Shown here: positions 4,812 through 62,392 of the stretch, in pieces
Layout: each line of letters starts with the position of its first letter
Position numbering within the stretch: position 1 is the first letter of the stretch
Assembly: GCA_963762255.1 (NCBI GenBank)
Contig: CAVXKA010000002.1
Coordinates: forward strand, 160,001-224,000
DNA from: Candidatus Eiseniibacteriota bacterium
GTDB lineage: Bacteria; Eisenbacteria; RBG-16-71-46; JABDJR01
DNA length: 64,000 bases
Direction of reading: 5' to 3'
Made by a program: the position numbers and the translations under genes
Notes under the pieces: generated by a model
Databases searched by the model: none
Told to the model about the DNA's origin: nothing
Seen by the model: only the letters and a program-made list of their open reading frames with translations

Positions 4812-5419
4812 GCGTGGATGTCGCCCTCTTTCGGCTCATCAACATCGCGTGGGGTTGGGATGCGCTCGCCCCGGCGATGCGGTTCCTCAGCGGGCTCGTC
4901 TACTGGATCCCGCTTCTCGTGCTGCTCCTTCTCTGGATGCTGTTTCGCGACGGCCGTCGCGGCAGGATCACCGTGCTTCTCCTGCTCTTCCTCGTCCCGG
5001 CGACCGACCAGATCGCGAGTCATGTGCTGAAGCCGCTCGTTGCGCGGCCCCGCCCCTGCCGGGTGGAGGCGGGGATCGAGGGGGTGCGCACTCATGGAGC
5101 GCGCTGTTCGCGCCGCGGGTCGTTCCCTTCGTCCCATGCCGCCAACGTGGCCGCCGCGGCTGCCCTCTTCGCCCTTCGCTATCGCCGGGCACGCCTCCCC
5201 GCCGGCTTGATCGCTTTCCTGGTGGGTTACAGCCGCGTCTATCTGGGGGTCCACTACCCGAGCGACGTCGCCGGAGGGTGGCTTCTTGGGGCCCTCCTGG
5301 GTGGAGCGGCGGCGGGGATCCCGTTGACGATGCGTCGCAGCGGGCCTACACTCTTGGCACGGGGTTGGAATCCAAGGCATCGAAAACCCACTGCCTGCAG
5401 GAACATCGACACGCGATGA
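4808..5419 (+). CDS. PAP2-family membrane phosphatase
   Basis: Motifs KPLVARPRP, SFPSSHA and SRVYLGVHYPSDV. ATGA overlap with the upstream gene. Confidence 0.9.
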   Translation: MSVDVALFRLINIAWGWDALAPAMRFLSGLVYWIPLLVLLLLWMLFRDGRRGRITVLLLLFLVPATDQIASHVLKPLVARPRPCRVEAGIEGVRTHGARCSRRGSFPSSHAANVAAAAALFALRYRRARLPAGLIAFLVGYSRVYLGVHYPSDVAGGWLLGALLGGAAAGIPLTMRRSGPTLLARGWNPRHRKPTACRNIDTR

Positions 5420-8268
5420 GGTCTTCCTCGACGCCCCGTCCGCCGGCTCGTGGCAACCGCAGCCGGCGAATCCTCACCCTGGCCGTGCTCTTCGCCGCCC
5501 TCTGTGCGGTACGACCGGGTGAGTCGACCGTCCCTCCGCCGGCCGGCGTCGGGTGCGGCCCCGCAGATGCCGCCGGTCTTTCTCCGCAGGAGATCCGCCT
5601 GTGGAAAGATCAAGACCTGGGACGGCCCGCCGACCACCTCCTCGGGCAGAGTGCCGAGCGCAAGGCGGGGGAGACCACGGTGCTCCGCGTCGTGGTGATC
5701 CTCGTCGATTTCCCCGATCTCGCCGCCGACCGCGTCCTGCACACACCGGAGTACTACGAGCACCTGATCTTCAGCCGGGGCGTGCGCCCCGGAGGTTCGG
5801 TCGCAGACTTCTTCGCCGAGTCCTCTCGAGGAAGGCTCCAACTGCAGGGAAAGGTCCGCGGTTGGTTCACGGTTTCCCAGACTCGAAACAGTTATACGGG
5901 AGGAGTGAGCGGGCTCGGGAGCTACCCGGTCAACTCTCAACGCCTCGCTGAAGAGGCGATCTATCTCGCCGACCCGTCCATCAATTTCGCCGATTACGAC
6001 AACGAGGGCCCGGATGAGATCGCCGATTCCGGCGATGACGACGAGGTCATCGACGGCCTCGTCCTCGTCCATGCGGGCTCCGGGCGCGCCGAGGGCGGCA
6101 CCACGACCAACGATTTCGTGAGCCTCCAGTGGTGGACGCCGGACCCCGTGCCGGTGGACGGCGTGTATGGGAGGTACTTCACGCTGAATCCCGAGAACGG
6201 GGAGATCGGGATCTTCCTCCATGAGATCGGCCACCTGCTCGGCTTGCCCGATCTCTACGACACGGACGGCGGGTCGGCCGGGGTCGGCCAATGGTCGATG
6301 ATGTCCGGAGGCTTTGTCCTCGACGGGGGCCGCACGCCTGCGGACTTCGATGCCTGGAGCAAGGTCCAGCTCGGGTTCGCCGACGTGAAGCGGATCTTCC
6401 TCAATCGCGCCGACGAGGAGATCCTTCCAACCGCTTCCTCGGGACAGGTGTACCGGCTCTGGGCGAACGGGGGAGGAACGAAGGAGTACTACCTCCTCGA
6501 GAATCGCCGCCGTACCGGGCTCGATGCGCGGCTCCCGAGTCAGGGGCTGCTGATCTATCACGTGGACGAGGGCGTTCCCAACAATCGCAATCCCAGTCAC
6601 TACAAGGTGGCGCTCGAACAGGCGGACGGTCTCTACCAACTGGAGAATCGATACGGCTCCGTCTCGTTCGGGGACTCCGGCGACCCCTACATCCAGGGGA
6701 GGGAGTTTGGCCGCGACACCGATCCATCCAGCTTTGCCTACGACGGGACGGAGAGCTACGTGGCTCTGTTCAACGTGCACGGGCCGGACGCGGCAGGAGC
6801 GTATACCGCTGACCTGCATGTGGAGCCGGGCGCGGTGGTGACGGTCACCGATCTGCAATTGACCGAGGTTTCCGGTGACGACGACGGGTTGGTCGTTACC
6901 GGCGAGACCGCCGGGTTGATGCCGCGGGTGAGCGTGGCACGCAAGGCGGCGGCGAACCTCGTGCTCTCCCTGCGGTCGCTCGATGCGCGCGCCGAGGTGC
7001 TCGATACGACCTGGGCCCCCGGCACCGTGCTCCCGGGTCAGCCCGTCACGCCGTCGCAACCCCTGCGCGTGCGGGTGGTCGGGCAACTCCCGACCAATCC
7101 TTACGGCCTGCGTCTCGAACTCACCGCGACGTGGGACGATGCGCCGCGGAAGATCGTGCCGGTCGAGTTGGGCCTGGGAACTGTCGTCGGCCTCTCGGCG
7201 GATTTCAACGCATCCCAAACCGGTTGGGTGCACGCCCCCTTGCGGTCGACCGCGGTCAACCAGTGGCTGTACGGCCCCAGCTTTGGATCCGGTGCGACCC
7301 CTGGATTCAAGTACGGAAGCGTGCCCTACGGATTCCTGGGTGGAGCGGACGCCGCTCTCGTTTCGCCGCCCATCCTGCTTCCGCCTCATGCCATCCTGGA
7401 GTTCGACCAGGCGGTGGACATCACCTATCCCGACACGGCGACGTTTCTGGGTGGGGGCGTCATCGAGGCATCCGCGAACGGCGGAGATTGGCAGCCCGTG
7501 ACGCCGGAGGGGGGATACCCGGAGTTCTACGGGGGATCGAGCCCCGGCTGGGAGGCTCGCCCCGTCTTCGCAGGTCGCCCGATGAGCGGCACCTACCATA
7601 CCGTGCGCGTGGATCTCGGGGGATTCGCCGGCGCCGTCCGCGTCCGGTTTCGTTTCTTCGCGGAGAAGGGAACGACGAGCGGCACCGGCTGGCGCGTGGA
7701 CAATGTCCGCGTGCTCTCCGATCCTACGCCGGTCCGCGTGGTGGCGGCGTCGGCCACGGCCGACGGCGGTGATGTCCTCTTGAGCTGGGAACTCGCCGAT
7801 CCTCTCCCTACCTTCCTGCGCTGGCGCCGAGGCCGGGATGAGGCCGGCGCGATGGCGATCTCCGACTGGGCGCCTGCGCAAGCCAGCGGCCGGCTTCGGG
7901 ACACCGGAGCGGCGGCGCTGGCTCCGATCCGCTACTGGCTCGACGGGTTGGAACGTGACGGCAGTGTGGAGACCTGGGGTCCGGTCACGTTGGCGGAGGG
8001 TGCGCCCCGTGTCGCCTGGAACTTGCTGGAGAATCCCTTCCGAGGCCCCGCGCGCTTCGCCTGGTCGCCCGCCCTCGATGAGGCCGCGCGGCTGGAGATT
8101 TTCGACGTGAGAGGGAGACGGGTGGCCCTTGTCGGAGTACCCGTGGGGAGTTCTCGGCTGGATTGGGACGGCAGGGGCGAGGGGGGGCAGCCGGTGCCTG
8201 CGGGCGTGTACTTCGCACGGCTTCAAGGAGCCGCGTTTCCGCCTCTCCGGCTGGTGAGGCTCCCATGA
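5416..8268 (+). CDS. Secreted M6-family (immune inhibitor A-like) metalloprotease with C-terminal FlgD-Ig/CTD-like domain
   Basis: Signal-like N-terminus; VILVDFPD, HEIGHLLGLPDLYD, WSMMSGG and EYYLLENR; C-terminal LEIFDVRGRRV...WDGR...PAGVYFARL. Confidence 0.85.
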   Translation: MRSSSTPRPPARGNRSRRILTLAVLFAALCAVRPGESTVPPPAGVGCGPADAAGLSPQEIRLWKDQDLGRPADHLLGQSAERKAGETTVLRVVVILVDFPDLAADRVLHTPEYYEHLIFSRGVRPGGSVADFFAESSRGRLQLQGKVRGWFTVSQTRNSYTGGVSGLGSYPVNSQRLAEEAIYLADPSINFADYDNEGPDEIADSGDDDEVIDGLVLVHAGSGRAEGGTTTNDFVSLQWWTPDPVPVDGVYGRYFTLNPENGEIGIFLHEIGHLLGLPDLYDTDGGSAGVGQWSMMSGGFVLDGGRTPADFDAWSKVQLGFADVKRIFLNRADEEILPTASSGQVYRLWANGGGTKEYYLLENRRRTGLDARLPSQGLLIYHVDEGVPNNRNPSHYKVALEQADGLYQLENRYGSVSFGDSGDPYIQGREFGRDTDPSSFAYDGTESYVALFNVHGPDAAGAYTADLHVEPGAVVTVTDLQLTEVSGDDDGLVVTGETAGLMPRVSVARKAAANLVLSLRSLDARAEVLDTTWAPGTVLPGQPVTPSQPLRVRVVGQLPTNPYGLRLELTATWDDAPRKIVPVELGLGTVVGLSADFNASQTGWVHAPLRSTAVNQWLYGPSFGSGATPGFKYGSVPYGFLGGADAALVSPPILLPPHAILEFDQAVDITYPDTATFLGGGVIEASANGGDWQPVTPEGGYPEFYGGSSPGWEARPVFAGRPMSGTYHTVRVDLGGFAGAVRVRFRFFAEKGTTSGTGWRVDNVRVLSDPTPVRVVAASATADGGDVLLSWELADPLPTFLRWRRGRDEAGAMAISDWAPAQASGRLRDTGAAALAPIRYWLDGLERDGSVETWGPVTLAEGAPRVAWNLLENPFRGPARFAWSPALDEAARLEIFDVRGRRVALVGVPVGSSRLDWDGRGEGGQPVPAGVYFARLQGAAFPPLRLVRLP

Positions 8269-9443
8269 GGCGTCTACTTTGCCTCGGGCTCCTGCTGGCC
8301 GCTCCGGCCTTCGGCGCGACCTGGCAACCGGGTTCGCAGGAGATCCCTGCACCGGAAATGAGCGCGAGCCTGGGGGGCGGACAGCCGGTCGCGTCGGGCA
8401 TCGGCGGCGAGGTGTTCATCCTCTTCCAGGACTTCGTCGATGACACGACGTTTCGTGTGGGAGCCCTCGTTCGCGCTGCTGACGGAACGTGGTTGCCGGC
8501 CGAGCTGCTCTCCGGCGATCGCAATGCGCGCAACCCGAGCGTGGCGGTCGGCCAGGATGGCCGCGCCCATGTCGTCTGGGAGGACATCACCGAGGGAGAC
8601 GGGGACATCGTGTATCGGGTCCGCGGTGCGGACGGCATCTGGAGCGAGACGATCTCGATCGCGCCGGCGGCGGGAGCGTCGCGCGAGCCGGTACTGGCCG
8701 TGGACGCGTTCGGCCGAGTTCACGCGGTATGGGTCGATGCGCGCACCGGCCTCCCTCAGATCGTGCATTCCGTTCTGCCTCCCGGGGGCGCATGGGCGCA
8801 ACCCGTTGTGATCAGTGTCGGCGGAGACAACCCGGACGAGCCCTCGGTGGCCGCCGACGGAGTGGGCGGGGTGCACATTGTCTGGCGCGACCGGACCGGC
8901 TCCATACGCACCGGCGTGAGCTACGACATCCTGTACCTGCGCATCGACGCGATGGAGCCCCCGGGTGCGCCGCTCCAACTGGTCAACCACATCGCCATGT
9001 CGCAGTGGCCGGCCATCGCAGCGACGGAGGACGGTGTGCTCCACCTCGTCTGGGCAGACAACCGGGACGCTCAGCGCGGATCCTTCTTCGAGATTTACTA
9101 CAAGCGGTACCTTCCAGGCGTCGGCTGGGGCCATGACAAGCGCTTCACCCGCGACCAGCACGACCACTCCCGCCCGGTGGTGGCCGTCGGCGCCGGCGCA
9201 AGCGTTAACGTGGCGTGGGAGGATTTCCGGGACGGAAATTCGGAGATCTATTTCCGGCAGATCACGCCCGAGTTGGGCTGGGATCCCGCGTCCACCCGTC
9301 TCAGCCTGGACATCTCCTCCTCGCAGACCCCGTCGCTCCTCGCTCTCCCGGACGGGAGCCTCCTCGCTTTGTGGACGGACGCCCGCGGCTTCGGGGACTT
9401 TCGTCTCCTCGTCAAGAGCGGGGCGATCATCGCTCCGCACTGA
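8265..9443 (+). CDS. Secreted beta-propeller repeat protein (BNR/sialidase-like repeats)
   Basis: Signal peptide, then about 6-7 repeats of S..P.vAvd..G.vHvVW.D...G..dI.Y. Confidence 0.7.
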   Translation: MRRLLCLGLLLAAPAFGATWQPGSQEIPAPEMSASLGGGQPVASGIGGEVFILFQDFVDDTTFRVGALVRAADGTWLPAELLSGDRNARNPSVAVGQDGRAHVVWEDITEGDGDIVYRVRGADGIWSETISIAPAAGASREPVLAVDAFGRVHAVWVDARTGLPQIVHSVLPPGGAWAQPVVISVGGDNPDEPSVAADGVGGVHIVWRDRTGSIRTGVSYDILYLRIDAMEPPGAPLQLVNHIAMSQWPAIAATEDGVLHLVWADNRDAQRGSFFEIYYKRYLPGVGWGHDKRFTRDQHDHSRPVVAVGAGASVNVAWEDFRDGNSEIYFRQITPELGWDPASTRLSLDISSSQTPSLLALPDGSLLALWTDARGFGDFRLLVKSGAIIAPH

Positions 9444-9608
9444 CGCTCGAAGAGTGATTTCCCCCGATTCGGGGGCAAATTCCCCGCGGAGACGCGAATA
9501 CGCGTCCCCCGGGATCGCCTCGCACCTCCGCCCCGGCGATGCCCGGCGTTCCGTATCCGCCTATGGCGAAGCCGCTTGCCCTCCGGCAAGCGCGGCGGGG
9601 GAGTCGAG

Positions 9609-9624
9609 TGGCATGGCGGTTGCT
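9609..9624 (+). promoter_or_regulatory. Putative sigma54 (-24/-12) promoter
   Basis: TGGCATGGCGGTTGCT has exact GG-N10-GC spacing and matches TGGCAC-N5-TTGCW at all but one position. It is intergenic. Confidence 0.6.
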
Positions 9625-9634
9625 CAATCATAGA

Positions 9635-9800
9635 TGCACGCGCGGAGCTCACCGGCGCACCGAAAACGAGCGGTGGTTTCCCTGCGGTGTTCGTGAAGAC
9701 CTGCGTTGAGACGTTGATCCGCCAGAGTAAACACAGTTCACCAGGCACACGGCATCAGCGGGGATCGAAGAGGGCCGGCCCCAGGGCCGGCCCTTTCTTC
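9635..9800 (+). ncRNA. Candidate small RNA with a 6S-like closing stem
   Basis: Bounded by the sigma54 motif and an intrinsic terminator. Region 9679-9764 folds into an interrupted hairpin (UCCCUGCGGUGUUCGUG...CACGGCAUCAGCGGGGA). Confidence 0.5.
9768..9800 (+). terminator. Intrinsic terminator, possibly bidirectional
   Basis: AGGGCCGGCCC-CA-GGGCCGGCCCT followed by TTCTTC. Confidence 0.75.
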
Positions 9801-9811
9801 TTCCCCTCGCG

Positions 9812-9841
9812 TTGACAGCAATTCCCGGCCTTTGTTAGCTT
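9812..9841 (+). promoter_or_regulatory. Putative sigma70 promoter for sppA
   Basis: TTGACA-18 nt-TAGCTT with an extended TG. Confidence 0.6.
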
Positions 9842-9888
9842 CCCTCCACGTTTCGGCGCGCCTCCACCTCCCACAGAACGAGTCGCCC

Positions 9889-10770
9889 ATGGCCACCCGC
9901 ACACAAGGTCTCCTGCTCGGTTGCCTCGTTCTCTTCGTGATCGGCGGTTTCTTCCTCGTGGCCTCGTCGTTCCTCCTCTCCGGCTCCTGGCCGGGCGGCG
10001 ATCTCGGCGGCTTGGGGAGCGGTCGCGTCGGCCTCGTGGTCATCGAAGGTCCCATCGAATCGTCCCGGGACCTGGTGCAGGAGATCGACGACAACCGCAA
10101 GGATCCCAGTATCAAGGCGGTCGTGCTGCGGGTGGACAGCCCCGGTGGCGAGGTGGCTCCCTCCCAGGAACTCCACTCGGCGGTGAGCCGGCTCGCGGAG
10201 GTGAAACCGGTGGTGGCCTCGCTGGGGAGCGTCGCTGCATCGGGGGGATACTACGTCGCGGTCGCGGCGGATTCGGTCATCGCGGATCCGGGCACCCTGA
10301 CCGGCAGCATCGGCGTGATCTTCGCGTATCCCACCGCGAAGGCTCTCATGGACAAGCTCGGCGTGACGCTGCAGGTCTACAAGAGCGGCGAACTCAAGGA
10401 CATGGGTTCGTATGCGCGCGAGCCCACCGAGGAAGAGGGCGAGGTCTTCGACGCGTTGATCGCCGACGTGTACGATCAGTTCGTGAGCGCGGTGGCCGAT
10501 GGACGAAGGATGGAGAGGGATCGTGTGATCGCCCTCGCCGATGGGCGCGTGTATACCGGCCGGCAAGCGGTGGAGATCGGCCTCGTGGATCGGCTGGGTG
10601 ACCTGCACGAGGCGATCAACGTGGCTGCGGAGTTGGGCGGACTCCAAGAGGATCCCTCGGTCGTGCGCAAGGCCAAACCGCGACTTCCCCTCCTCGACCT
10701 CCTCGACACCGTCCTCGGCTCGGGGGCCCGGGCCACCTGGGGACCCCGCCTGGAGTACCGCCTCCGCTGA
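9889..10770 (+). CDS. sppA: Signal peptide peptidase SppA (36K type, S49)
   Basis: Motifs LRVDSPGG, VAASGGYY, TLTGSIGV, KSGELKD and ADGRVYTG. Confidence 0.92.
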   Translation: MATRTQGLLLGCLVLFVIGGFFLVASSFLLSGSWPGGDLGGLGSGRVGLVVIEGPIESSRDLVQEIDDNRKDPSIKAVVLRVDSPGGEVAPSQELHSAVSRLAEVKPVVASLGSVAASGGYYVAVAADSVIADPGTLTGSIGVIFAYPTAKALMDKLGVTLQVYKSGELKDMGSYAREPTEEEGEVFDALIADVYDQFVSAVADGRRMERDRVIALADGRVYTGRQAVEIGLVDRLGDLHEAINVAAELGGLQEDPSVVRKAKPRLPLLDLLDTVLGSGARATWGPRLEYRLR

Positions 10771-11277: not shown

Positions 11278-11685
11278 ATGGCGAAGAATGCGGTGAAGGA
11301 GCGGAGGAAAGCTCCACGTATCGATACGCGTCTGGCGTTGCAGGTGGAACGGGCTACGAAGCCTGCGACCGAGAGACCGATCACAACGGAGAGCCTGAAC
11401 CTGTCCAGCGGCGGGCTCTGCTGCCAGGTGCGTAGCTACGTCGAGCCACTGACCCGGGTCGGGCTCACGGTGCTTCTGCCTTCCTTCGGCAGGAAGGGTA
11501 AGAAGACGCAGGTGGTGACCTGCAACGGCGTCGTGGTGCGGTGCGATACCCATACTCCGCATCAGGAATACGAACTGGCCTGCACGTTCACGGACATCAA
11601 GAAAGAGGACAAGGTGCTCATCGAGGAGTACATTGGCTGGCGGCTGATGCAGGACCTCGTGGACGAGCGGCTGTCTCAACCCTGA
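11278..11685 (+). CDS. Stand-alone PilZ-domain (c-di-GMP-binding) protein
   Basis: GGAGGAG RBS; ERRKAPR (RxxxR) and NLSSGG (D/NxSxxG). Confidence 0.85.
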   Translation: MAKNAVKERRKAPRIDTRLALQVERATKPATERPITTESLNLSSGGLCCQVRSYVEPLTRVGLTVLLPSFGRKGKKTQVVTCNGVVVRCDTHTPHQEYELACTFTDIKKEDKVLIEEYIGWRLMQDLVDERLSQP

Positions 11686-11723
11686 CCCCGGCCCGGGCCG
11701 GGAGTCGGATCGAAAGCGCACTC

Positions 11724-12752
11724 ATGAAACTGCGATCTCGACTGTCGTTCGCAAGCCGGCCCGAGCGGAAGCCCCGCATCGCGATCCTTGCCGCCACGGT
11801 GCTTGCCTTTGGGGCGCTGGCGTCTCCCGCCCTGGCGGTGGACAAATTCGCCGCGGAGTTCCTCAAGATCGGCGTGGGCGCCCGGGCTCTCGGCATGGGA
11901 GGCGCGTTCGTCTCCATCGCCGACGACGCCAGCGCCACGTACTGGAACCCCGCCGGCATCGTGCAGCTCCAATCGCGCGAGGCCCTGGGGATGCACGCGA
12001 GCCAGTTCGGCGGTGTGGTCGCCCATGACGTCCTCGGCGTGGTGGCCCCCTTGCGGTCCGGCGGATCGGACGCCGCCGTCGGCCTTACCCTGATCCGCCT
12101 CGGCGTGGACGACATTCGCGTGACCAAGGACGCCGTGATCGGCACCGACGAGAACGGTAACCCGGTCCTCGACCCATCGCTCATCACCAAGAAGAGCGCG
12201 TACGACCTCGCCCTGCTCCTCACGTACGCCCGCACGGTCGGGGTCCGCTGGGCGGCGGGCGTCAACGTGAAATTGATCCGCCAGTCGCTGGTGGGCGAGG
12301 GGGCGAGCTTCGGGATCGGCGCCGACTTCGGCCTGCGCTATCAGCCGAACCCGTCCGTGGCGTTCGGCGTGCGTCTGGCCGACATCACGACCACACAGCT
12401 CTATTGGGATACCGGAAGACGCGAGACGGTGGCTCCCACGGTCACGCTGGGCGTGCACGGCACGCGAGCCGTCGAAGCGCTCCAGGGCTCGCTGACCGTG
12501 GGCCTCGACTCGAACTTCGCCTTCGAGGGACAAGAGGCCGACCAGTTCCACACCGGGAACCTGTCCGGCAACTTCCTCCCGGGTCTCGAGTATCTGTTCC
12601 GCGACACCGTCGCCCTACGGGTGGGTTCCAATGCCGGCGACTTCACCGCCGGCGCCGGTGTACGCTACAGGCAAGTCGGGGCGGACTACGCGTATCTATC
12701 GCATGATCAATTGGACGGGACGCATCGCGTCAGCGCGCTCGTGCGGTTCTGA
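11724..12752 (+). CDS. PorV/PorQ-family (UPF0164-like) outer-membrane beta-barrel
   Basis: FLKIGVGARALGMGGAFVSIADDASATYWNPAG; DYAY...THRVS; terminal Phe. Confidence 0.8.
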   Translation: MKLRSRLSFASRPERKPRIAILAATVLAFGALASPALAVDKFAAEFLKIGVGARALGMGGAFVSIADDASATYWNPAGIVQLQSREALGMHASQFGGVVAHDVLGVVAPLRSGGSDAAVGLTLIRLGVDDIRVTKDAVIGTDENGNPVLDPSLITKKSAYDLALLLTYARTVGVRWAAGVNVKLIRQSLVGEGASFGIGADFGLRYQPNPSVAFGVRLADITTTQLYWDTGRRETVAPTVTLGVHGTRAVEALQGSLTVGLDSNFAFEGQEADQFHTGNLSGNFLPGLEYLFRDTVALRVGSNAGDFTAGAGVRYRQVGADYAYLSHDQLDGTHRVSALVRF

Positions 12753-60963: not shown

Positions 60964-62392
60964 CTACGCCGCCTGCCGCTTCCCCGGACGATTCATGTTG
61001 TAGAGCTTCATCCGGTACCTGAGCTTGTCGCGCTTCAAGCGCAAGAGATCCGCGGTACGGCTCTGGTTCCACCCGGTGAGGTCGGACGCTTTGATGATGA
61101 GGAGTTGTTCGATCTCGGCGAGGAGATCCTCGAACGCGATCCCCTCGGGGGGCATCCCCGCATCCTCCAGAATCTGCTCGAGCCGCGCCACCGGGGAATC
61201 GGTGTCCCTCGTGGTGCGCCCGCTCCCCAGCTTGAGCATCTCGGCTTCCACCCGCGTCCCGTTCTCGAGCAGCACCGTGCGCTCCATCAGGTTCTTGAGC
61301 TCGCGGATGTTACCCGGCCAGGGGTAGTTGAGCAGCGCCTGCTCCGCCTCGGGGCTGAATCCCTGGAACGGCTTCGTGAACTGATGCGAGAACGCGTACA
61401 GGAAATGCTTGGCCAATGCCAGGATGTCTTCGCGCCGCTCACGCAGCGGCGGCACCCGCAGCGGCACCACCTTGAGGCGATAGTAGAGGTCCTCGCGGAA
61501 CCGTCCCTCCTCGCACATCTTCTGCAGATCCTGGTTGGTCGCGCTGATGATGCGCACCGAGACGGTGATGTCCTTGGTGCCGCCGACCCGCCGGAAGGTC
61601 ATGCGCTCGAGCACGCGCAGCAGCTTCACCTGGATCTGGAGGCTCATCTCCCCCACCTCGTCCAGGAAGAGCGTGCCGCCGTTGGCCATCTCGAGGAGCC
61701 CCTGCTTCTGCGTGCGCGCGTCGGTGAAGGCCCCCTTCTCGTGCCCGAAGAGTTCGCTCTCCAGGAGTTCCTCGGGGATGGCCGCGCAGTTGATCTCCAG
61801 GAACGGCTTGTCGCGCCGGCTGGAGAGATCGTGGATCATGTTGGCGAGGAGTTCCTTGCCTGTCCCGCTCTCCCCCGTGATGAGGACGCTGGTGGAGTCG
61901 GAGGTGGCCACCTGCTCGACCGTCTCGTAGACCTCGCGCATGCGCGGGCTCTCGCCCCGCACGAGGTCGCGCGAGAAGCGGTCGGACTGCTGCCGCCGGA
62001 GATGGTGGAGTTCCCGCCAGAGCTTGCGGCTCTCCAACGCCTTCTCCACCGTGATGAAGAGCTGCTCCAGGTTGATCGGCTTGTTGATGTAGTCGAACGC
62101 GCCCAGCTTCATCGCCCGCACCGCCGACTCCACGTCGCCGAAGGCGGTCATGATGATGACCTGCAGATCGGCGTCGTCCTCCTTGAGCTTCTTCAGCACG
62201 TCGAGACCGTGCATGTCGGGCAGCCGCAGGTCGAGGAGCACGAGGTCAGGGCTCCTGTCGCGCCACGACCTGGAGGCCCTCGCGGCCCTCCCCGGCTGTG
62301 GACACCTGGTAGCCCTCGTCCAGCATCGCCTTCTCGATGAAGTGGCGGATCGACTCCTGGTCATCTACGATGAGTATGTGCGCGTTAGTCAT
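60964..62392 (-). CDS. NtrC-family sigma54-dependent response regulator (apparent +1 frameshift near 62255)
   Basis: N-terminus MTNAHILIVDDQ; DLVLLDL, GESGTGKE, GAFTDA, DLYYRL and HTH. Confidence 0.9.

Follow-up and report, generated by a model that had tools for sequence, protein, structure and literature searches.

A conserved 6S-like mini RNA with a predicted sigma-54-type promoter in Candidatus Eisenbacteria

Introduction

6S RNA, the textbook RNA mimic of an open promoter, sequesters the housekeeping RNA polymerase (RNAP), and all 6S RNAs characterized so far are, to our knowledge, built from two arms around a large bubble. 6S-Flavo (RF01685) is a short 6S-like RNA of a related superphylum, with a model of 108 positions, and Ms1 is about 300 nucleotides (nt) long; the sigma-54-dependent small RNAs (sRNAs) Qrr and GlmY/GlmZ act by pairing or by protein sequestration. 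Here we describe a 93-nt RNA, hereafter the mini RNA, that is predicted to combine the closing arm of 6S with a sigma-54-type promoter. Its gene lies upstream of sppA in a 64,000-nt stretch of DNA from a Candidatus Eisenbacteria genome (assembly GCA_963762255.1, contig CAVXKA010000002.1, positions 160,001 to 224,000 of the forward strand); this stretch is called the window below, and all plain coordinates refer to it. An earlier note on the window, made from its letters alone, had proposed a sigma-54-dependent "half-6S" RNA at this place, acting as an RNAP-binding decoy.

Escherichia coli 6S is transcribed from sigma-70 and sigma-38 promoters, according to the available portion of PMC3988568, and several 6S paralogues per genome are described for Bacillus subtilis in an excerpt of PMC3923129. 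The accessible text of PMC8876501 reports two B. subtilis 6S-1 constructs, 6S78 and 6S82cp, which at 78-82 nt lack the -35 region; they bind polymerase about 10-fold more weakly, still template product RNA and are released. Ms1 of Actinobacteria, a 6S-related structured RNA, resides on the polymerase core rather than on the housekeeping holoenzyme in the part of PMC9130861 that we draw on. A study of Cupriavidus gives ssrS an extracytoplasmic function (ECF)-type promoter and, in the passages available, does not analyze RpoN (PMC13492112). Within the open full-text literature, to which subscription papers and supplements do not belong, we found no sigma-54-dependent 6S RNA, no natural half-size 6S RNA and no small RNA from Eisenbacteria.

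Resemblance to 6S RNA

Judged by sequence, the core of the mini RNA is a 6S derivative: its closing arm appears homologous to that of 6S up to and including the start-site region, and the rest of the central bubble (the -10 mimic) and the apical arm (the -35 mimic), assigned as in the available part of PMC8876501, have apparently been lost and replaced by a loop of 17-30 nt. The core and the elements around it are as follows.

9609-9624, + strand: -24/-12 promoter element of the sigma-54 type (TGGCAT-N5-TTGCT), TGGCATGGCGGTTGCT, read directly in the sequence
near 9635, + strand: predicted transcription start
9635-9675, + strand: predicted to form the 5' leader of the primary transcript; variable, and with a short hairpin immediately ahead of the core
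9676-9768, + strand: core RNA of 93 nt, a 6S-like closing arm (P1 to P5) with a 17-nt loop cap
9713-9720, + strand: GUUGAUCC (GYUGAUCC in the family), the start of the apical loop, from the MAFFT alignment
9772-9780 / 9785-9793 and 9794-9802, + strand: intrinsic terminator, a GC hairpin of 9 base pairs (bp) followed by the U tract TTTCTTCTT
9812-9817 and 9833-9841, + strand: sigma-70-type promoter of sppA, TTGACA, N15 and the extended -10 element TGnTAGCTT
9889-10770, + strand: sppA, signal peptide peptidase S49 (Peptidase_S49, PF01343, E 5.5e-47)

At Rfam gathering thresholds, nothing in the whole 64-kb window matched. When matches on 9400-9900 (501 nt) were reported by E-value, the best was to the 6S model RF00013, at 9676-9768 (+) with 28.1 bits and E 6.9e-4 (E 1.3e-3 in a genome-wide search), which bears out the likeness of the arms to 6S that the earlier note had pointed out; the other model it had named, the 6S-Flavo model RF01685, found no match in the whole genome even at E <= 10. 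The RF00013 alignment is an end-to-end match below threshold. It spans model positions 1-187 with 38 nt in place of 133 central positions, so that the match is confined to the two ends of 6S and the apical arm is missing, as had been supposed. The UGAGCC/GGUUCA-type helix of the 6S closing arm is present, with UGAG and UUCA paired in the fold; in place of the 6S rod of about 160-200 nt, with its large central bubble between arms, there is a single 93-nt hairpin. Other members of the RNA family described below score 26.0-34.1 bits against RF00013.

Aligned globally with the 6S RNA of the same genome, the 5' arm in the window is identical at 32/47 positions, a result equaled by 1 of 1000 shuffles, and the 3' arm at 27/43 (5/1000); in another taxonomic family, f9, 31 of 44 positions of the 3' arm agree with the genome's own 6S (0/1000). 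The 5' arms resemble that of E. coli 6S with z values of 3.0 to 3.8. The blocks TTCCCTG, CGTGA, CACGG and GGGGAA are common to the canonical 6S arms of Eisenbacteria and to the mini RNA family, in a comparison restricted to the sequences that could be anchored, 10 of the 30 canonical ones and 58 of the 62 mini RNAs. The 6S features that have been kept are the invariant P1 (UUCCCUGC/GCGGGGAA), the CGUGA/CACGG helix and the UGAG/UUCA helix below the bubble.

The likeness includes the region of the product-RNA start site. The 5' arm of E. coli K-12 ssrS reads CCUGAGCCGAU, with a U at position 44; this U44 is the start site of product RNA in the available portion of PMC3988568, where G42, U44 and A45 are also described as affecting product-RNA initiation and release. 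Family f9 reads CCUGAGCUGAU, in which the matching U is model position 44, and U9718 of the window, model position 43, is aligned with E. coli U44. The invariant GAU of the mini RNAs is aligned with G42-A43-U44 of E. coli at an equal distance from the 5' end (43-44 nt). The lengths of the arms agree as well, with 43-44 nt against 44 in E. coli on the 5' side and, from the UUCA helix to the end, 41 nt against 40 on the 3' side.

Conservation and covariation

The window's own genome, G000, comprises 4.14 Mb in three contigs and is 93.6% complete. Among 40 relatives searched at the nucleotide level, the locus was recovered from members of its own genus and of one further genus within the taxonomic family; the inner ~45 nt of the hairpin are invariant across these two genera, whereas the flanking proteins are only 49-79% identical. 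Two weak RF00013 matches in other taxonomic families turned out to be homologues, and a covariance model, R1, was built from eight sequences; it gives the core in the window 102.4 bits. At E <= 0.01, R1 matches 65 of the 151 genomes in a sample of the class (Candidatus Eisenbacteria), each exactly once, a tally that includes an unpublished genome (G054) and a match in G097 judged to be false. The latter (locus L089) lies in coding-like sequence, carries none of the family motifs and was excluded from subsequent alignments and counts. At E <= 0.001, matches were obtained in 55 of the 151 genomes of a phylum-wide sample, which is in effect a sample of the same single class. The taxonomic families f1 (7/7), f9 (37/41) and f12 (4/5) are densely populated, and no match was found in the sampled families f2, f6, f7, f8, f11, f13 and f14. 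A pattern scan in which every prokaryotic species was represented by one genome yielded 66 loci: the 49 that match R1 belong to Candidatus Eisenbacteria metagenome-assembled genomes (MAGs), to unlabelled MAGs and to five MAGs with other phylum labels, and the 17 that do not are chance-like and come from unrelated phyla. Within the genomes searched, the RNA family is confined to Candidatus Eisenbacteria.

For structural analysis, a MAFFT alignment blind to structure was made of 62 distinct members (87-106 nt) and scored against a 32-pair model. Standard pairs fill 86.6% of the cells, compared with 40-52% in controls whose pairing partners are shifted by 1-3 columns, and compensatory change is seen at 15 pairs. 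Covariation in relatives, which the earlier note had proposed as a check, supports the structure: 133 cells carry double changes against 49.7 +/- 8.7 in shuffles, and none of 500 shuffles reached that number. The RNA is a conserved, structured, long irregular hairpin. At the locus in the window, the + strand folds at -72.3 kcal/mol (z -2.53; 3 of 200 shuffles were equal or better) and the - strand more weakly (z -1.53). All the pairings named in the earlier note occur in the minimum-free-energy fold, namely UCCCUGC/GCGGGGA (9679-9685 / 9758-9764), GGUGU/GCAUC, CGUG/CACG and CCUG/CAGG.

Across the family, P1 (UUCCCUGC/GCGGGGAA) is almost invariant, P2 consists of four freely covarying pairs, P3 (CGYG/CRCG) is followed by an internal loop, P4 has 5-7 covarying pairs, and P5 reads UGAG(CUG)/(CAG)UUUCA in most families and UGAG-ACG-UUG / CAG-UUCA in the window genome. 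The apical loop of 17-30 nt opens with AUCC and continues with C-rich sequence; in some members it contains a vestigial inner stem of 2-6 bp. GYUGAUCC is the best-conserved motif of the family outside P1. Some of the stem sequence is fixed outright: one P1 pair is U-G and one P3 pair is G-C in 62/62 members.

This pattern of conservation bears on two ways in which the RNA could act. The mini RNA could be a trans-acting, base-pairing sRNA in which the hairpin is a scaffold, GAUCC and the C-rich loop form the seed for mRNAs (for example, their G-rich ribosome-binding regions) and 6S ancestry persists without 6S function. The best-conserved unpaired stretch, GYUGAUCC with the C-rich residues, does lie in the apical loop, and sigma-54-driven RNAs that pair or sequester exist in Qrr and GlmY/GlmZ. 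Yet only about 8 nt are common across the family, and base pairing leaves the invariant, 6S-identical stem sequences unexplained. A scaffold needs no invariant stem sequence, so that a shared protein partner, which in the case of 6S is RNAP, would account better for these stems. In a weak test made without annotation, words complementary to the loop number 101 in G000 against 166 expected at k=10, 28 against 39.5 at k=11, 9 against 9.4 at k=12 and 4, including the gene itself, against 2.2 at k=13. We regard base pairing as unlikely.

As separate observations, a loop-complementary 13-mer occurs twice, at G000:C1:718937 (-) and C2:536652 (+), each time within 30 nt of a possible start of an open reading frame (ORF). 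One of these sites follows a strict sigma-54 consensus site (C1:719239) at a distance of about 300 nt. With 2.2 occurrences expected by chance for 13-mers, the pair of sites may be meaningless.

Other 6S loci in the same genomes

A search of G000 with RF00013 yields three loci: a 6S of 179 nt, a paralogue of 154 nt and the mini RNA. The canonical 6S (87.3 bits; G000:C2:243811-243989 (-), locus L001) lies about 20 kb past the end of the window and is the separate, full-length 6S that the earlier note had suggested looking for elsewhere in the genome. The second paralogue (49.6 bits, over the Rfam threshold; G000:C1:103435-103588 (+), L002 1458-1654) is on a different contig, and was missed by the fast filters of Rfam and then confirmed; its closing stem is extended and its bubble normal. 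Found in six genomes, all of family f1, it carries a TTGGCA(T/C)-N5-CTGCA element of the sigma-54 type about 30 nt upstream, invariant in 6/6 f1 genomes, and a conserved block with ATGCCACAA about 50 nt further upstream. Since this paralogue also has such an element, sigma-54 control of 6S-type RNAs would recur in family f1. The sister species G001 has the same trio, with 89.8, 42.7 and 32.1 bits, and a canonical 6S scores over threshold in 35 of 41 class genomes.

An RNA of intermediate size was seen in genome G009 of family f2 (L042:497-611 (+)). This 6S-like RNA of 123 nt (30.4 bits) has retained CACCACCUGG as a bubble strand along with a short apical hairpin, is not matched by R1 and has no clear -24/-12 element; it may represent an intermediate form.

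The presence of a full-length 6S bears on the most trivial account of the locus, which would make it an artefact or relic, be it through an assembly deletion in 6S, pseudogene decay or chance resemblance. A promoter motif that is at chance level in a single genome and a 6S score under threshold are what this account can draw on. However, one copy of the same length recurs in 65/151 genomes, the structure is supported by covariation, and DNA contigs of two other public runs, from related strains 90-99% alike, span 9491-9782 and 9652-10143 with no insertions or deletions; in our view, the account is scarcely credible. The particular case that the earlier note had singled out as fatal to its proposal, an assembly deletion inside a normal-length 6S gene, has not materialized: a deletion in the only 6S gene is ruled out by the conservation of the family, the indel-free contigs and the separate full-length 6S.

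A protein-coding reading has likewise been ruled out. The ~165 nt between the -24/-12 motif and the terminator hold no credible gene, in keeping with the earlier note; none of the three ORFs that overlap the RNA locus has a Pfam match, and the inner ~45 nt are invariant across genera, an invariance pattern, seen in a six-genome alignment, that together with the absent Pfam matches excludes a coding function.

The sigma-54-type promoter and its regulation

A predicted sigma-54-type promoter, with GG at -24, GC at -12 and fixed spacing, is conserved among relatives. GG-N9-TGC occurs within 130 nt upstream of the core in 60 of the 62 distinct members, against a background of 0.224 per 130 nt elsewhere in these loci (514 kb, counting both strands), and TGGCAYG-N4-(T/A)TGC is invariant in 6/6 f1 genomes, where the flanks vary. 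The motif at 9609-9624 from which the earlier note had started is thus present in the window and conserved across the family. The strict -24/-12 consensus matches G000 10 times against 8.8 expected, which is chance level for a single genome; the weight of the motif comes from its family-wide conservation, not from this frequency. In one of the two exceptions, the contig ends 53 nt upstream and the truncated locus starts with TTGCA. The second exception, L053:1391-1601 (+) of genome G011 (family f4), is the sole complete member that lacks a GG-N10-GC element upstream; it has TTTCAC-N18-TTCAAT right before the core, a motif that suggests a promoter swapped to the sigma-70 type. The genome has the machinery that a promoter of the sigma-54 type would use, with rpoN encoded once (PF04552, 216.4 bits) and the sigma-54 activator domain PF00158 present in 23 genes of G000.

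Family members differ in how far the core lies from the -12 GC (15 to 106 nt, median 48), so the mature 5' end may be set by processing; the sequence of the 5' leader differs between genera and carries insertions and deletions. This variability is one of two points in favor of a decoy role that does not involve RNAP, in which the mini RNA would capture another factor that binds the closing stem, such as a maturation nuclease or a stabilizing protein, and thereby alter the processing, stability or release of 6S. Leaders of 15-106 nt suggest 5' processing at the base of P1, which is where E. coli 6S is processed at its 5' end, and the invariant P1-P3 are common to the canonical 6S of the same phylum and to the second paralogue. 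Against such a role, which we consider quite improbable, no candidate factor was identified, and the conserved GAU at the start-site position of 6S would be superfluous for it.

A stand-alone gene beside sppA

The mini RNA gene is a stand-alone small-RNA gene with its own terminator, and sppA is its neighbor, not part of the RNA. The strong terminator described in the earlier note holds up, with a hairpin and a U tract in the window and, in the consensus of six f1 genomes, a 13-pair helix with three compensatory pairs whose pairing all six keep; by a crude rule, a hairpin followed by a T run lies downstream in 25/62 family members. The separate sigma-70 promoter that it had assigned to sppA is also conserved in 6/6 f1 genomes, TTGACA being invariant and TGnTAnnnT conserved. 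A consensus promoter and terminator scanner run over 9300-10000 called 0 promoters and 0 terminators. The sppA promoter escaped it because the -10 element fits only 3/6 consensus bases, and both calls rest on folds and conservation rather than on the scanner.

Directly downstream of the RNA and on the same strand, sppA is found in 32 of the 50 loci examined, namely all the f1 and f9 loci, an arrangement that would suit a cis-acting, sigma-54-driven leader controlling sppA by read-through. In 17 true members from seven other families, however, sppA is absent downstream, and the neighbors are instead an OPT transporter, an Rce1-like protease, an oligopeptide ABC ATPase, a glycosyltransferase or a phosphofructokinase. 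These variable neighbors, together with the conserved terminator and the separate sigma-70-type promoter that intervene, argue against a cis role, which we hold to be very improbable. They are consistent with the view of the earlier note that the RNA is a transcription unit of its own, with a predicted sigma-54-type promoter and terminator.

Other features of the neighborhood are given for completeness. Just past the stop codon of the upstream ORF (9441-9443) lies a CCCCCG-ATT-CGGGGG hairpin at 9461-9475 that has no U tract; its position is kept in 6/7 f1 genomes, and it is the source of a spurious weak Rfam match, asR3. The upstream ORF itself (8163-9443 (+)) has no Pfam match, yet accompanies the RNA throughout f1 at 45-69% identity. 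Further neighbors (4849-8268 (+) and 11541-12752 (+)) encode a Peptidase_M6 protein whose C-terminal domain is FlgD_ig-like and a weakly PorV-like protein; they hint at cargo of type IX secretion.

A possible polymerase-directed role

We tentatively favor a polymerase-directed, 6S-like role under enhancer control, with a confidence that stops a little short of even. We posit that the mini RNA arose from a 6S paralogue, would be synthesized only once an enhancer-binding protein activates the sigma-54 holoenzyme, and would engage RNAP through the portion which, in 6S, occupies the downstream-duplex channel and the active site. It could then modulate the polymerase as a weak or specialized 6S-like decoy or template and, lacking the contacts with sigma-70, might act on core RNAP or on a non-housekeeping holoenzyme. 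A more specific proposal, about which we are more doubtful, is that the mini RNA would be (i) a decoy that is independent of sigma or specific for the sigma-54 holoenzyme or (ii) a template that fills the active-site cleft; either mode of engagement would be new among RNAs.

Several results weigh against a polymerase-directed role or against the 6S ancestry on which it builds. The RF00013 score of 28.1 bits lies under the Rfam gathering threshold of 46.4, and of the 20 member loci in a 59-kb scan with this model, only 4 were matched at E <= 1. Conversely, R1 run with filters off against 31 canonical 6S loci and E. coli ssrS found nothing significant (best E 0.15). Its matches on canonical 6S loci are partial and mis-paired; the model fails there because it is unable to bridge a 90-nt insertion, and it mis-pairs because the apical hairpin of the canonical 6S repeats the closing-stem motif (UCCCCGC/GCGGGGA). 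The 3' arms do not resemble that of E. coli 6S significantly, 47/1000 and 740/1000 shuffles being as good. With regard to regulation, no activator gene adjoins the RNA, the nearest being about 52 kb away, and no upstream activator site was recognized: in the 260 nt upstream of the promoter, compared over seven genomes, no block is conserved between genera, and the conserved block upstream of the second paralogue has no counterpart there. Contigs of two public RNA runs reach only 9300-9487 and a few bases of sppA and are silent on expression. Finally, the constructs 6S78 and 6S82cp, as far as the accessible text of PMC8876501 describes them, keep the complete central bubble with a short helix on each side and drop the distal closing stem, and the mini RNA has neither the -10-mimic strand nor the upstream helix, so the housekeeping holoenzyme may not bind it at all.

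The nearest activator gene, at 61459-61959 (-), has the top score (249.3 bits) among the 23.

If the polymerase-directed role is correct, an alternative sigma factor would gain an RNA tool for retuning the polymerase pool. A natural, conserved family that retains only the downstream arm and the start-site region would amount to evolution's own deletion experiment on 6S, made in cells in which the mini RNA coexists with a normal 6S and, in one taxonomic family, with a full-length paralogue that is putatively sigma-54-driven. It raises the questions of which portions of 6S are enough for a biological function and whether forms of the polymerase besides the housekeeping holoenzyme can be targeted. 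The predicted promoter also adds a defined member of the sigma-54 regulon for a phylum known only from metagenomes, of uncultured soil and groundwater bacteria. At 93 nt, the RNA is easily synthesized, which makes direct binding and product-RNA assays with purified polymerases feasible.

Comparison with known systems

The mini RNA shares with 6S RNA (RF00013) the closing arm, P1, the GAU at the start-site position and the lengths of the arms. 6S, however, is about 180 nt long and has a central bubble and an apical arm, whereas the mini RNA has 93 nt and lacks the 3' strand of the bubble and the apical arm. Their promoters differ too: sigma-70 and sigma-38 serve E. coli 6S in the available portion of PMC3988568, and the promoter of the mini RNA is predicted to be of the sigma-54 type. 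In size and in the missing -35-like region, the mini RNA is like 6S78 and 6S82cp as they are described in the accessible text of PMC8876501. It is nevertheless their opposite in design, since the whole closing arm has been kept, whereas the upstream helix and most of the bubble are gone.

6S-Flavo is a sequence family distinct from the mini RNA. For the idea that core RNAP is the target, Ms1 offers a precedent within the excerpt of PMC9130861, a likeness by description only; the phyla with Ms1 are said to lack 6S, whereas the Eisenbacteria genome analyzed here also has a canonical 6S. The Rfam families of sigma-54-dependent sRNAs have no match at the locus, and Qrr and GlmY/GlmZ, unlike the mini RNA, have no 6S-like arm. 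What these sRNAs have in common with the predicted layout of the mini RNA is the organization of the gene: each is a stand-alone unit with a -24/-12 promoter and a terminator, placed under the control of an enhancer-binding protein.

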